The notes under the pieces: model-generated
The model's database searches: none
What the model saw: the letters and a program-made list of their open reading frames with translations, nothing else
What the model was told of the DNA's origin: nothing
Sequence record: PQ471516.1
DNA: 64,000 bases
DNA from: Escherichia phage Turkey5
Direction: 5' to 3' (one strand)
Shown here: positions 10,424 to 16,743 of the stretch, piece by piece
Layout: each line of letters begins with the position of its first letter
How positions within the stretch are numbered: position 1 is the first letter of the stretch
Program-made: the position numbers and the translations under genes

Positions 10424-11119
10424 ATGGTTGAACAATTTATGTTTGGTGGTTATGCAAATGGTGAAGTACGTAACATTTCTATTCCTTATGTTGTAGAAAA
10501 AGTTAACGGTTCAGAACGTACATATGACTTGGCATCTCGTATGATGCAAGACCGTATCCTATTCTTGGATACCGATTTCAACGACCAGATGGCACACATT
10601 ATCAAACAACAATTGGTATGGCTGGATTCACAAGGTGATTCTCCAATCACTATGTATATTTCGTCACCGGGCGGTTCAGTTCACGCTGGATTGGGTATTG
10701 CTGATGTTGCAAAATCCTGTATCTCTCCAATTCGTACTGTTGTTATGGGTTATGCTGCTTCTATGGGTTGCTACACTCAATCAGTACTGGGTTCTAAGGG
10801 TTATCGTTTAGGTGGTAAGCGTTCATTCTTCATGTGTCACCAAGTAAGTTCTGGTACACAGGGTTTGATTACTGACCAGAAGATTTCATTGAAGCATTCT
10901 GACTCTCTGAACACGCTTCTAACGAAAGAAATCGCTGAAGCAGTAGGTGTGTCCCATGAACAACTTCTGAAAGACGCAGACCGCGATTTGTGGCTAAATG
11001 CCGAAGAAGCACTTGAGTACGGCGAACATGGTTTCATTGATGGTATCATCCTTGGGCCACGTGATGAAGCTGGTAAGTACCTTGTTAAGCGTCGTGGTGG
11101 CGTGGAAGAGTGGGTGTAA
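10424..11119 (+). CDS. ClpP-like serine protease
   Basis: SPGGSV, catalytic Ser in GYAASMG, His in MCHQ, Asp in FIDGI; AGGAAA RBS-like sequence upstream. Confidence 0.7.
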   Translation: MVEQFMFGGYANGEVRNISIPYVVEKVNGSERTYDLASRMMQDRILFLDTDFNDQMAHIIKQQLVWLDSQGDSPITMYISSPGGSVHAGLGIADVAKSCISPIRTVVMGYAASMGCYTQSVLGSKGYRLGGKRSFFMCHQVSSGTQGLITDQKISLKHSDSLNTLLTKEIAEAVGVSHEQLLKDADRDLWLNAEEALEYGEHGFIDGIILGPRDEAGKYLVKRRGGVEEWV

Positions 11120-11130
11120 TTGGTTGAGAA

Positions 11131-11170
11131 TTGTGCCTCGAATTGAGGCACAATATTGATATTTTATTGA
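11131..11170 (+). terminator. hairpin, probable terminator
   Basis: 9-bp stem ttgtgcctc/gaggcacaa after ClpP stop, weak T-tract. Confidence 0.45.
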
Positions 11171-11181
11171 GGTAATTTCAA

Positions 11182-11466
11182 ATGACAAAAGTACTCGTTC
11201 GTAATAACAGTACTGAAGAAGTTCAAGTACTCGATGATTCAGAATTCATTGATGTAGCACTAACTCAAATGTCCGAAGCTGCATTGTCAGTTAAAGGATG
11301 CACACAGTCTGAAGAACTGCTTAATGGTTTAGCTGTAGTTCTTGAACTAATGCAAGAAGTACTTGCAAAAAATAACATCAATCCAATTAACGTCGTGACA
11401 CATGCAACCAATCTACGTAATGAGTTTGGTTCATTCAGTGACAAAAAAGCATCCACTAAAGAATAA
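11182..11466 (+). CDS. hypothetical protein
   Basis: 94 aa ORF. Confidence 0.45.
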   Translation: MTKVLVRNNSTEEVQVLDDSEFIDVALTQMSEAALSVKGCTQSEELLNGLAVVLELMQEVLAKNNINPINVVTHATNLRNEFGSFSDKKASTKE

Positions 11467-11480
11467 GGAATAATAAGACA

Positions 11481-11924
11481 ATGGCTAATGATCAATACAA
11501 AGATGGACTAGAAGCATTCAAAGCAAAAGTGGTTCTAACTAATGAACAACTAAAAATGCAGCATCCACTATTCCGTCAGGGTTATCGTTCTGCACAAGAA
11601 GCAGCTATGAAGAAAAACAATCCAACGTTCCCTACAGCATTGTTTGATATTCCTAAACGTCCTGAAGTGTTTAAGGCCGAATGGACAGACATTATGGCTG
11701 CGACCAAACGACCTCGTTTTGCAAAACTTCATACCGATGAAGGTCGCTGGATGCTCATGGAAATCATGAAAGCAGTAGAAAAACAAGCCGACAAAATCGT
11801 TCGTTATAAAGATGTAGTGAATATGGTAGACAAAGCGTTTAACATTATCCTACAGTACGGTTACGATGAAGGTGTACTGACCGTAACTGATTGCGAACAG
11901 TACGATTTCGTACCAGTACAATAA
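11481..11924 (+). CDS. hypothetical protein
   Basis: 147 aa ORF. Confidence 0.45.
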   Translation: MANDQYKDGLEAFKAKVVLTNEQLKMQHPLFRQGYRSAQEAAMKKNNPTFPTALFDIPKRPEVFKAEWTDIMAATKRPRFAKLHTDEGRWMLMEIMKAVEKQADKIVRYKDVVNMVDKAFNIILQYGYDEGVLTVTDCEQYDFVPVQ

Positions 11925-12072
11925 TCTTTTAAGGGAGTCTTTATGGCTCCCTATTCTCATATGAGGAATATATGGAACTTTTAGTGCGGATATACATAAA
12001 TCATTGTACAAAAATTGTCACTTTTGGGGTAAATACCGAAGGGTAACAGTTTTATAACAAGGTAGGTGGCAT

Positions 12073-12588
12073 ATGCAACACAAACTAAGTGAAGATCAAA
12101 GTGATGTTTTCTTTAACCATATGTTTATAATTGATAAGTTTTTTGAGGGATTAAATGCGGAAGCAACTGCAATAATGAAGAAGTGGTATAAAGCTTATAA
12201 AAGAAATAAGAAATGGTATTGGTTGAATCGTGATATGGATTCTTTTATCCGAAAAATCACATACAAAGACACCATAGAATTGAAACGTAGTTCTATGGGT
12301 TATAGCTATCTTTCTAAAACTCACGAAGAATCATGGAATATTGGGATTAAAGTATCCGTTGTAGTTGAGATGACCGGATTACCACAATCTGTTATCCAGG
12401 AAGAAACTGAGAAGTTATGGAAGATAGTAGAGTTCATGCACAATAACATTTCGTTCGTTTATAAGAATTTCGATGCTTTTACTGACATAAAAGCGTATAA
12501 TAGAAGCCCATATGTTCTTAGTGATAAACTTTATCATCACATGGAACTATGTAAGGCTTATGTGAAGGAATGGAATCTAGAGGAATAA
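12073..12588 (+). CDS. hypothetical protein
   Basis: 171 aa ORF with GGTGG RBS-like sequence upstream. Confidence 0.45.
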   Translation: MQHKLSEDQSDVFFNHMFIIDKFFEGLNAEATAIMKKWYKAYKRNKKWYWLNRDMDSFIRKITYKDTIELKRSSMGYSYLSKTHEESWNIGIKVSVVVEMTGLPQSVIQEETEKLWKIVEFMHNNISFVYKNFDAFTDIKAYNRSPYVLSDKLYHHMELCKAYVKEWNLEE

Positions 12589-12589
12589 A

Positions 12590-15085: not shown

Positions 15086-15091
15086 GTGAAT

Positions 15092-15120
15092 AAAAAAAGG
15101 GAGCTTGTGCTCCCTTTTCT
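15092..15120. terminator. bidirectional rho-independent terminator
   Basis: gggagc ttgt gctccc flanked by A-run upstream and T-run downstream, between convergent genes. Confidence 0.75.
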
Positions 15121-15123
15121 AAT

Positions 15124-16032
15124 TTAAGCTGCACTTACAACATAAGTACATTCAGCAGTATGTGAACCATCAACTGTAGTTACGATAACACTAGCATTAC
15201 CTTCACCAACTAATATTACAAAACCTGTTTCAGATACGGTTAGTACATCGTCATTAGTACTTGACCATACAACATCTTTGTTAGCTGCATTATCAGGCAG
15301 AACCGTTGCAACTAGTAATTCAGTACCACCAATTGGGCCATTACTTGATGTTTTACTTAAAGTAACACCAGTAACTGGGGTATTGACAACATATGCACAA
15401 GATGCTACTTTAGAGCCATCAACTGTTGTTGCGTTGACTGTTGCAGAACCGTTACCAACTAGAGTTACTAATCCAGAATTAGACACTGTGAGTACTGCGT
15501 CATTAGTACTTGACCATACAACTGATTTATTTGTTGCATTTTCAGGTAATACAGTTGCAACTAGTGTTTCAGAACCACCAATCGGACCATTACTAGAATT
15601 TTTATTCAATGAAATACTTTCGACTGGAACAACAACTGCGACATACTTAGTCGCGTACTTACCAGTTTGTACTTCATTGCCATTAGTAAGAATTACTTTA
15701 TGGGTGAAAAATTTATATGCAAAACCGAGTGCTTCCATAGTTGTTGCATCATATACTTTAACAGCGAATTCATCACGACCAAGTGCACTTGCAATTTCTT
15801 GGGCAGTGGCTGATAAATCAAGTAGGTTACGATTTTTATCTCGACCAACCATTGATACTCTTTGATAAACAGTAGTTGAATCACTATCAACTAAGTCAAA
15901 CATGCGAGTACTACACTCGTTGATAATGTATAGTTCTTTATCAATTTCTTGAGCACTGTGATCAGTTGCTGCAAAAACACAGATACCACCAACGTTGAAT
16001 GGCAATTCACCAAATTTAGCTATAGGCTTCAT
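15124..16032 (-). CDS. protein with two tandem bacterial Ig-like (Big_2-type) domains, probable virion decoration or adhesin protein
   Basis: only substantial minus-strand gene; C-terminal half is two ~85 aa repeats (SLNKNSSNGPIGGSETLVATVLPENATNKSVVWSSTND...); AGGAG RBS; TATAAATA motif upstream. Confidence 0.6.
   Translation of the reverse strand: MKPIAKFGELPFNVGGICVFAATDHSAQEIDKELYIINECSTRMFDLVDSDSTTVYQRVSMVGRDKNRNLLDLSATAQEIASALGRDEFAVKVYDATTMEALGFAYKFFTHKVILTNGNEVQTGKYATKYVAVVVPVESISLNKNSSNGPIGGSETLVATVLPENATNKSVVWSSTNDAVLTVSNSGLVTLVGNGSATVNATTVDGSKVASCAYVVNTPVTGVTLSKTSSNGPIGGTELLVATVLPDNAANKDVVWSSTNDDVLTVSETGFVILVGEGNASVIVTTVDGSHTAECTYVVSAA
15130..15640 (-). repeat. intragenic tandem duplication (~255 nt x2) encoding the two Ig-like domains
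   Basis: nucleotide and protein-level repeat visible within the minus-strand gene. Confidence 0.6.
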
Positions 16033-16063
16033 TTGCTTCTCCTATCAATAGAATTATTTTAAT

Positions 16064-16071
16064 TATTTATA
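16064..16071 (-). promoter_or_regulatory. T4-type late promoter motif TATAAATA (minus strand)
   Basis: exact TATAAATA about 30 nt upstream of the minus-strand start codon. Confidence 0.4.
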
Positions 16072-16080
16072 AAATTCAGG

Positions 16081-16109
16081 TTGACAAACATCAACAATCC
16101 TAATACAAT
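16081..16109 (+). promoter_or_regulatory. sigma70-like promoter TTGACA-17-TACAAT
   Basis: consensus -35 with 17-nt spacer, upstream of gene at 16141. Confidence 0.45.
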
Positions 16110-16140
16110 AGTACTAAATCCAACCGAATAGGAATAAGAC

Positions 16141-16743
16141 ATGACTTGCATCATCGCTCACGCAACACGTACTTCATCGTTTATTGCTGCTGACAAATTA
16201 GGTAGCAATAACTTTACAAAAGCAATCCAAACGGAACCAAAGATCTTTGAGAAAGAGTTCGATTCTCGTGTATTGGAAGAAGGGTTTATCCCAACAATTC
16301 ACAAAGATACCATGACAATCGGATACACTACATCGTTCCGTATGGGACAGTTGTTGGAACATTGTCTTGTTCTACCAGAGAAGCAACCAACCCAATCGTT
16401 CAAGGAATATCTAGTACAATCAGTAGTTCCAGCTATCCGCACTTTATTCCGTGAAGAATGGGGTTCTCGTGCCGATAATCAAGATGTAGGTGGTGGTCAG
16501 TTCATCATCCTTCATAAGCACAAGATCTATGAAATTCATGAAGACTTCTGTGTACTTGAACCAAAAAACAACATCAGTGCAGTTGGTAGTGGTGCATATC
16601 ATGCAATTGCAGCAATGGCAGCTTATCTAACAGTTGAAACTGAAACTGAAGTTCCATTGGTTGACCGTATTGGTTCGATCTTTGATATCGTCAGCGATCA
16701 TGTTGTTAGCGTGAGTTTTGAGCATGACATTCTAAAATACTAA
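16141..16743 (+). CDS. HslV/proteasome-beta-like Ntn hydrolase
   Basis: Thr immediately after initiator Met (MTCIIA, cf HslV TTIV) and ISAVGSGAYHAIAAMAA resembling HslV IAIGSGGPYAQAAA. Confidence 0.5.
   Translation: MTCIIAHATRTSSFIAADKLGSNNFTKAIQTEPKIFEKEFDSRVLEEGFIPTIHKDTMTIGYTTSFRMGQLLEHCLVLPEKQPTQSFKEYLVQSVVPAIRTLFREEWGSRADNQDVGGGQFIILHKHKIYEIHEDFCVLEPKNNISAVGSGAYHAIAAMAAYLTVETETEVPLVDRIGSIFDIVSDHVVSVSFEHDILKY

Follow-up and report, generated by a model that had tools for sequence, protein, structure and literature searches.

The locus described here raises the question of why a phage genome would carry three protease-fold genes apart from its structural modules, and with which partners, if any, their products would work. 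The genes lie in a stretch of 64,000 nucleotides of Escherichia phage Turkey5 (sequence record PQ471516.1), referred to in its whole length as the window, and are designated here as open reading frames ORF1, ORF2 and ORF3 (Table 1). A preliminary description, made from the sequence, had read them as a ClpP, a ClpP-fold peptidase with a signal peptide and an HslV-like N-terminal nucleophile (Ntn) hydrolase, lying outside the structural module of a T4-type phage. All three are present in the list of open reading frames of the window where that description had placed them, their location outside the head and tail modules was confirmed, and the fold and family assignments were upheld by profile, alignment and structure comparisons. 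PHROGs profile E-values for the three proteins ranged from 1e-21 to 1e-73, far past chance, and the structure models were confident, with fold matches at a probability of 1.00. We consider it likely that a RaK2-like jumbo coliphage here carries three non-structural protease genes, each behind its own promoter, of which ORF1 would belong to a phage-encoded ClpAP, ORF2 would be exported and ORF3 would work as a partner-less proteasome homolog.

Over positions 10000-17000 of the window, Escherichia phage vB_EcoM_JNE01 (JNE01; 355,583 bp, Asteriusvirus) is 97.9% identical at the nucleotide level along the full length, and the PBECO4/121Q group is ~78% identical in conserved stretches only. The source phage is an Asteriusvirus, a RaK2-like jumbo myovirus of the 355-kb class with T4-like head genes, and not a classical T4-type phage; the group has been termed a T4-like offshoot (PMC6102473), so the earlier label "T4-type" fits the head genes and is otherwise loose. 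Genes 464, 473 and 475 of 121Q are direct orthologs of ORF1, ORF2 and ORF3 in the same order and neighbourhood, as are their counterparts in PBECO4, phAPEC6 and JNE01, and they are labelled in 121Q as "protease (ClpP-like)", "protease (ClpP-like)" and "protease (ClpYQ-like)", respectively. The neighbourhood that the window shares with them runs from ligase and phosphoesterase through ClpP, dCMP deaminase, ORF2, the small membrane protein and ORF3 to Sir2, Nudix and PhoH. None of the three proteases was matched to a defence system by PADLOC.

ORF1 matched the Pfam model CLP_protease (PF00574) with an E-value of 6.6e-41 (140.6 bits, cut-off 20.2), its best ClpP match in the PDB had an E-value of 2.8e-36, and it is 35% identical to the authentic ClpP of E. 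coli K-12. As in E. coli ClpAP (MEROPS S14), it carries the fold-defining sequence, the catalytic Ser-His-Asp and the oxyanion SPGG. The triad is intact, since S113, H139 and D188 align to S111, H136 and D185 of E. coli ClpP, in the contexts AASMG, MCHQ and DADRDLW ("DTERDRF" in E. coli), and SPGG (residues 81-84) falls on the ClpP oxyanion loop. Of the three triad contexts proposed originally, AASMG and MCHQ do align to the catalytic Ser and His, but FIDGI aligns to the non-catalytic "LVDSI" of E. coli. ORF1 scored below the NCBIfam equivalog cut-off for ClpP (TIGR00493; 150.4 bits vs 308.6), and by these comparisons it is assigned to a divergent phage clade of ClpP.

The preliminary description had also stated that no cognate ATPase is present in the window. 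To look for one, the window and the rest of the JNE01 genome were searched by tblastn with ClpX, ClpA, HslU and Lon of E. coli K-12, and the genome also with ClpS. Neither these searches nor domain scans found an AAA+ unfoldase in the window, in agreement with that statement. Across the whole JNE01 genome no homolog of ClpX, HslU, Lon or ClpS was found, and the sole match was to ClpA: a protein of 761 aa (120668-122953; WOL22763.1), annotated merely as "hypothetical protein", which shares 42% identity with ClpA of E. coli across 731 aa (582 bits) and is located ~39 kb past the right end of the window. Like E. coli ClpA, it has two AAA+ modules, with both Walker A motifs (Pfam domains AAA, AAA_lid_9, AAA_2 and ClpB_D2-small), and an IG[L/M] loop, in which IGM aligns to the ClpP-docking IGL of the E. 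coli protein; it differs from the E. coli system in this IGM and in that the phage encodes no ClpS. ClpA and ClpP co-occur in Asteriusvirus, RaK2/K64-1, CBB, Atu_ph07 and SCTP-2, and likewise in Erwinia, Yersinia, Xanthomonas and Salmonella jumbo phages, a co-occurrence noted before for the RaK2-like lineage (PMC6102473; PMC7824862). In 121Q, gene 581 is annotated as ClpA-like; the phage ClpA is 88% identical to that of 121Q, ORF1 is 95.7% identical to the 121Q ClpP while the adjoining DNA is at ~78%, and both proteins are far more conserved than the products of neighbouring genes. Because a full ClpA is encoded in the same genome, ORF1 most likely works as part of a phage-encoded ClpAP, and, with a full-length ClpA carrying the IGM loop in the genome, docking of the ClpP onto unfoldases of the host or action on its own, as suggested earlier, is the less favoured reading. 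ORF1 would form the usual barrel, fed by the phage ClpA, and the complex would be an ATP-dependent cytoplasmic protease acting on selected proteins of host or phage.

ORF2 matched phrog_26024 ("protease") with an E-value of 1.2e-73 and passed the Pfam CLP_protease cut-off marginally (22.0 bits, cut-off 20.2). An hhalign comparison of the family with the single E. coli ClpP sequence gave a probability of 8%, and the question was settled by fold comparison, in which the ClpP fold was present and ClpP ranked well above the crotonases. Twenty-four sequences of the family, down to ~22% identity, share the invariant residues S71-x-G73-G74, C99-x-S101-x-C103, H126-N127, Y165, G169 and P171; the first of these motifs is the oxyanion loop, and Ser101 and His126 fall at the positions of the nucleophile and the base of ClpP, so that on alignment the catalytic Ser and His are kept in both ORF1 and ORF2. 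The preliminary description had placed ORF2 at 14152-14751. Its reading frame and end stand, but the start is most likely the GTG at 14140, because an AGAGGG Shine-Dalgarno sequence lies 7 nucleotides upstream of it, the homologs all begin with M-x-R-L-x-K-E four residues before the ATG at 14152, the JNE01 annotation starts the gene at the GTG, and a promoter overlaps the further ATG at 14089. This last codon was rejected as a start on account of that overlap with the TTGACT-17-TACAAT promoter.

The signal peptide of ORF2 was placed heuristically at about residues 1-24, ending FPCSA/G. All family members have a basic (K/R) n-region and a hydrophobic core with a mean Kyte-Doolittle value above 1.8, and an AxA-type site around residues 19-25 is present in most. 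Both the N-terminal signal-like segment and the SPGG core seen earlier are thus real, and conserved in 24/24 members examined; given this conserved (heuristic) signal peptide, ORF2 departs from the cytoplasmic location with AAA+ docking that is typical of ClpP. Because the predicted Sec signal peptide appears cleavable, ORF2 would act in the periplasm or envelope, as a Ser/His peptidase that needs no ATP. In this regard it resembles SppA (S49) and NfeD/1510-N, which also have a ClpP/crotonase fold, are non-cytoplasmic and work independently of ATP. However, it keeps the ClpP-type Ser and His, gave no profile match to SppA/S49 or NfeD above cut-off, and has no S49 Ser-Lys dyad because no Lys is invariant; it is also small and single-domain, has a C-x-S-x-C nucleophile motif and is almost confined to RaK2-like jumbo phages. 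Cys99 and Cys103, which are invariant and flank the nucleophile, are the only cysteines of mature ORF2 and, speculatively, would probably form a disulfide in the periplasm. The breadth of the family was taken from an exhaustive HMMER search, in which only 15 of 1.84 billion cluster representatives scored below 1e-10 (another homolog search had given 2, then 8 relatives), and its members come from 52 phage records, nearly all of RaK2-like jumbo phages. Weaker relatives are unannotated ClpP-fold proteins, some of them fused to LprI or Sel1 domains.

ORF3 matched phrog_1040 ("peptidase HslV family") with an E-value of 1.2e-21. It starts with MTC and contains VGSGAYHAIAAMAA, which are aligned to Thr1 and the GSGG motif of HslV, and hhalign with E. 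coli HslV gave a probability of 96.5% with the catalytic residues in register, which supports the proteasome/HslV-like character first proposed from the MTC start and the GSG motif. M1-T2-C3, D18, K34, a GYTTSFRMGQ block and G149-x-G151 are invariant in 54 relatives. Removal of the initiator Met is expected before Thr, and the processed protein would then have Thr1, Asp17 and Lys33, the catalytic set of the proteasome and HslV, together with G149-S-G151. The AlphaFold2 (AF2) model has a pLDDT of 94.9, and its best fold matches were HslV (3ty6, E-value 7.6e-10) and BPH (TM-score 0.73-0.78), with Anbu and 20S beta subunits next; the Ntn-hydrolase fold is thereby upheld by structure prediction. 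ORF3 shares with the Group I proteasome homologs (HslV, BPH and the phage-associated AAH and PPH classes) a compact beta-type Ntn fold with Thr1/Asp17/Lys33, and has neither a propeptide nor a C-terminal extension. It is unlike HslV sensu stricto in falling under the equivalog cut-off and in having no HslU in the JNE01 genome, and unlike the PPH class (~140 aa, no helix H2) in having 200 aa with H2. Traits of its own compared with Group I homologs are the invariant Cys after Thr1, the GYTTSFRMGQ block and, in Asteriusvirus proteins, a lineage-specific beta-hairpin insertion of ~20 residues at about positions 37-58.

ORF3 homologs were found in 196 phage records, T5-like phages and phages of Vibrio, Aeromonas and Geobacillus among them, and many of these homologs carry the label "peptidase HslV family" or "proteasome subunit"; they were also found in 377 bacterial loci, mostly of Alphaproteobacteria, Actinomycetota, Myxococcota and Bacillota. 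Among 80 bacterial loci, no conserved neighbour or ATPase was found beside ORF3 relatives beyond lineage-local synteny. The preliminary description had not recognised an HslV-like gene in a T4-type phage as described, and its suggestion of novelty does not hold: 121Q gene 475 is already labelled ClpYQ-like, PHROG 1040 covers the family across these phage records, and phage-borne proteasome homologs, with the classes AAH and PPH, were surveyed by Fuchs, Alva and Lupas in 2021 (PMC8665760). HslV genes without HslU have also been remarked on in another jumbo phage (PMC7823757). The compact architecture and the taxonomic spread over phages, Alphaproteobacteria, Actinomycetota and Bacillota, which is also that of AAH, are most consistent with membership of ORF3 in the AAH class. 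No propeptide would be needed because Met removal would itself expose Thr1, and ORF3 would probably act as an ATP-independent, self-compartmentalised peptidase, or possibly borrow the host HslU.

Several observations weigh against this picture of the three proteins. Unlike in E. coli, clpP and clpA are unlinked, with clpA ~92 kb downstream of clpP, and because of this distance the case for their pairing is made by co-occurrence and the intact docking loop. PA5oct-like Pseudomonas phages have a ClpA and no ClpP at E<=1e-25; therefore, a phage ClpP may not always be needed for ClpA to function. Of the eight residues that we take to form the IGF/IGL-loop pocket of ClpP, from the ADEP and ClpX-ClpP structures, three differ from those of E. 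coli (Y60T, F82S and L114G), and these changes could make the interface either private or weaker. In phage CBB, ClpP was detected once in virions by mass spectrometry, with 1 peptide. For ORF2, the residue at the position of the ClpP Asp is not constant (D/N/E/G) and the family shares no invariant acidic residue, so that a complete Ser-His-Asp triad was not found, and its export was judged by heuristics rather than by a trained predictor. ORF3 did not match the Pfam proteasome model PF00227, and its matches to NCBIfam HslV models were weak, covered residues 122-167 and fell under the equivalog cut-offs (PRK05456, 18.9 vs 137 bits; TIGR03692, 18.2 vs 157.75 bits). Furthermore, no experimental work on any of the three proteins from any phage was found in the searchable literature; folds, catalytic residues, signal-peptide features, the presence of ClpA and the absence of HslU and ClpX are observed, and the ClpA-ClpP pairing, export, oligomeric state, early expression and all substrates are inferred.

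The alternative with the most in its favour, possible if on the unlikely side, is that the phage ClpP works mainly with the host ClpX or ClpA, or in mixed rings with the host ClpP, and so re-targets host proteolysis, while the phage ClpA is an independent chaperone or translocase. In Iyer et al. (2021), ClpP is taken to be host-directed, and a chaperone or translocase role is given to ClpA/ClpX. The distance between clpP and clpA and the apparent occurrence of ClpA without a close ClpP in PA5oct-type phages fit such a division, and five of the eight pocket residues are conserved or conservatively replaced with respect to E. coli ClpP. A pure ClpB-type disaggregase has no ClpP-docking loop, whereas the phage ClpA keeps the docking tripeptide (IGM) at the aligned position. 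In addition, clpA and clpP are kept together in many genera of the lineage, and the three non-conservative pocket changes hint at a private interface rather than one shared with the host. Use of host unfoldases is partly compatible with a phage ClpAP, which remains the preferred reading for ORF1.

It seems improbable that ORF3 docks on the host HslU as a substitute or dominant HslV and thereby shifts HslUV degradation. Its fold is closest to HslV and BPH, its Thr1/Asp17/Lys33 are intact, and HslU is present in the E. coli host and absent from the phage; against this, its identity to HslV is just ~17-21% and the Asteriusvirus proteins carry the extra hairpin of ~20 residues. The family is also found in Actinomycetota, Myxococcota, candidate phyla radiation (CPR) bacteria and T5-like and Gram-positive phages, no ATPase gene is conserved beside its members, and BPH, the best match by TM-score, has no known ATPase partner (PMC5777263).

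We are equally doubtful that ORF2, ORF3 or both are not proteases at all, ORF2 being a ClpP/crotonase-fold protein that is inactive or differs in catalysis, or a scaffold anchored in the membrane, and ORF3 an Ntn amidase or a connectase-like ligase. Connectase, a ligase, does belong to the proteasome superfamily (PMC8665760). Moreover, the rates of evolution are strikingly unequal, since protein identity to 121Q is 52-53% for ORF2 and 63% for ORF3 against the 95.7% of ClpP, and divergence of this kind in ORF2 and ORF3 is the pattern to be expected if diversification was host-driven or constraint was relaxed. However, the nucleophile, general-base and oxyanion positions of ORF2 are invariant at ~22-30% identity and ClpP stands well above the crotonases as its fold, and ORF3 has the full Thr1/Asp17/Lys33 set with a G-S/C-G motif, its alignment being to HslV and not to connectase, which forms a divergent group; a peptidase function of both remains preferred.

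Lastly, a role of ORF1 as capsid (head) maturation protease, as its 121Q and PBECO4 orthologs are labelled in RefSeq records that follow PHROG, is very improbable despite its match to phrog_94 ("head maturation protease", 2.6e-44) and the CBB virion peptide: a T4 gp21-type Peptidase_S77 prohead protease is encoded in JNE01 (156675-157295) beside the scaffold and Gp23-type capsid genes and was present in phAPEC6 virions (PMC7247149), ORF1 favours the cellular ClpP model (150 bits) over the "ClpP-related head maturation protease" model (52 bits), its gene lies among nucleotide-metabolism genes with its own sigma70-like promoter, and the phage genome encodes a cognate ClpA. Because of the separate S77 protease and these model scores, the head maturation label on ORF1 orthologs in RefSeq and PHROG is very probably an over-annotation.

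Near-consensus sigma70 sites (TTGACW-N16-18-TAYAAT) occur nine times in the window, all on the + strand (2414, 10275, 14082, 16081, 20407, 34770, 42130, 52443 and 55171), compared with 0.47 expected, and probably mark phage early transcription units. Each protease gene has such a site upstream (Table 1), which suggests that all three would be transcribed early by the host polymerase. Shine-Dalgarno sequences precede clpP (AGAGGA, 8 nucleotides upstream) and ORF3 (AGGA, 8 nucleotides before the ATG at 16141), and clpP looks monocistronic because a terminator-like hairpin lies directly 3' of it. A further hairpin at 13849-13876, strong and bidirectional, with a 12-bp stem and T-runs on both strands, stands between the dCMP-deaminase block and the promoter region of ORF2.

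Table 1. Features of the three protease genes and their surroundings (positions in the window).
Feature	Position	Strand	Basis or remark
Second near-consensus promoter before clpP, TTGACA-17-TACAAT	10275-10303	+	pattern match
Sigma70-like promoter before clpP, TAGACA-16-TATAAT with TG	10365-10392	+	pattern match
ORF1, ClpP proteolytic subunit, 231 aa	10424-11119	+	Pfam, PDB and E. coli ClpP alignments
Intrinsic-terminator-like hairpin directly 3' of clpP	11130-11154	+	sequence scan
Sigma70-like promoter before ORF2, TTGACT-17-TACAAT with TG	14082-14110	+	overlaps ATG 14089
ORF2, predicted exported ClpP-fold serine peptidase (GTG start at 14140, 203 aa)	14140-14751	+	profile, conservation, fold and signal-peptide features
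Small hydrophobic 86-aa protein, likely two membrane spans, ortholog of 121Q gene 474	14825-15085	+	synteny
Big_2 (Ig-like) protein gene, two Big_2 domains, outside the protease set	15124-16032	-	Pfam, PHROGs
Sigma70-like promoter before ORF3, TTGACA-17-TACAAT	16081-16109	+	pattern match
ORF3, proteasome-family Ntn hydrolase (HslV/BPH-like), 200 aa	16141-16743	+	PHROG, hhalign and AF2 fold matches

The 86-aa protein matched neither a PHROG nor a Pfam family. Its gene is flanked by the ORF2 and ORF3 homologs in 35/35 Asteriusvirus records, and in 121Q its ortholog, gene 474, overlaps the start of the HslV-like gene 475 by 4 nucleotides. Because of this constant position and the overlap in 121Q, ORF2, the small membrane protein and ORF3 are regarded as a conserved cassette. 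In the window the cassette differs from that of 121Q, as in this lineage the reverse-strand Ig-domain gene splits it, separating ORF3 from the gene for the small membrane protein. The ORF2 homolog of 121Q and K64-1 is instead preceded by a reverse-strand gene of the Ig type or labelled "major tail protein", and because of this different position the Ig-domain gene looks mobile or shuffled.

Directly 3' of ORF3, a Sir2-family gene (16963-17730, +) and a gene for a Nudt16-like Nudix hydrolase (17727-18278, +) overlap by 4 nucleotides. At the matching place K64-1 additionally has a nicotinamide phosphoribosyltransferase and a cytidyltransferase, which suggests, together with the Sir2/Nudix pair, an NAD-related module of the kind reported in jumbo phages. 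Upstream of clpP, a short ORF encoding a DnaJ-type CXXCXGXG zinc finger (5391-5678, +) is followed by a "hydrolase" with a PTH2-like (peptidyl-tRNA hydrolase) fold (5648-6088, +). The unannotated 402-aa ORF downstream of these two (6088-7296) is conserved in phages (phrog_14061) and has no recognisable domain; it was considered as a ClpA-like partner and rejected, as it has no AAA+ domain.

Genes, folds and family names alike are known already for all three proteins, from the 121Q GenBank record of 2014, from PHROGs, which holds all three families, and from the 2021 survey, and the locus matters little as a discovery. Its useful part is functional, namely the roles that a phage ClpAP, an exported ClpP-like peptidase and a partner-less proteasome homolog would have in infection, and the small genes and an E. 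coli K-12-type host make a convenient test system. It allows one to ask whether a private viral ClpAP serves to escape or override host proteolysis, whether viral AAH-type proteasome homologs need an ATPase, and whether the ClpP fold can work in the periplasm. The exported ClpP-fold family is the least explored of the three. In a more speculative reading, which we hold to be less likely than not, it would be an uncharacterised class of phage-exported, ATP-independent ClpP-fold peptidase with a nucleophile clamped by a disulfide (C-x-S-x-C), sent early into the periplasm against envelope proteins. If this is true, cleavage of envelope proteins by ORF2 might block superinfection, strip receptors or prepare lysis, and ORF2 may cooperate with the two other products of its cassette, the small membrane protein and the HslV-like protein.

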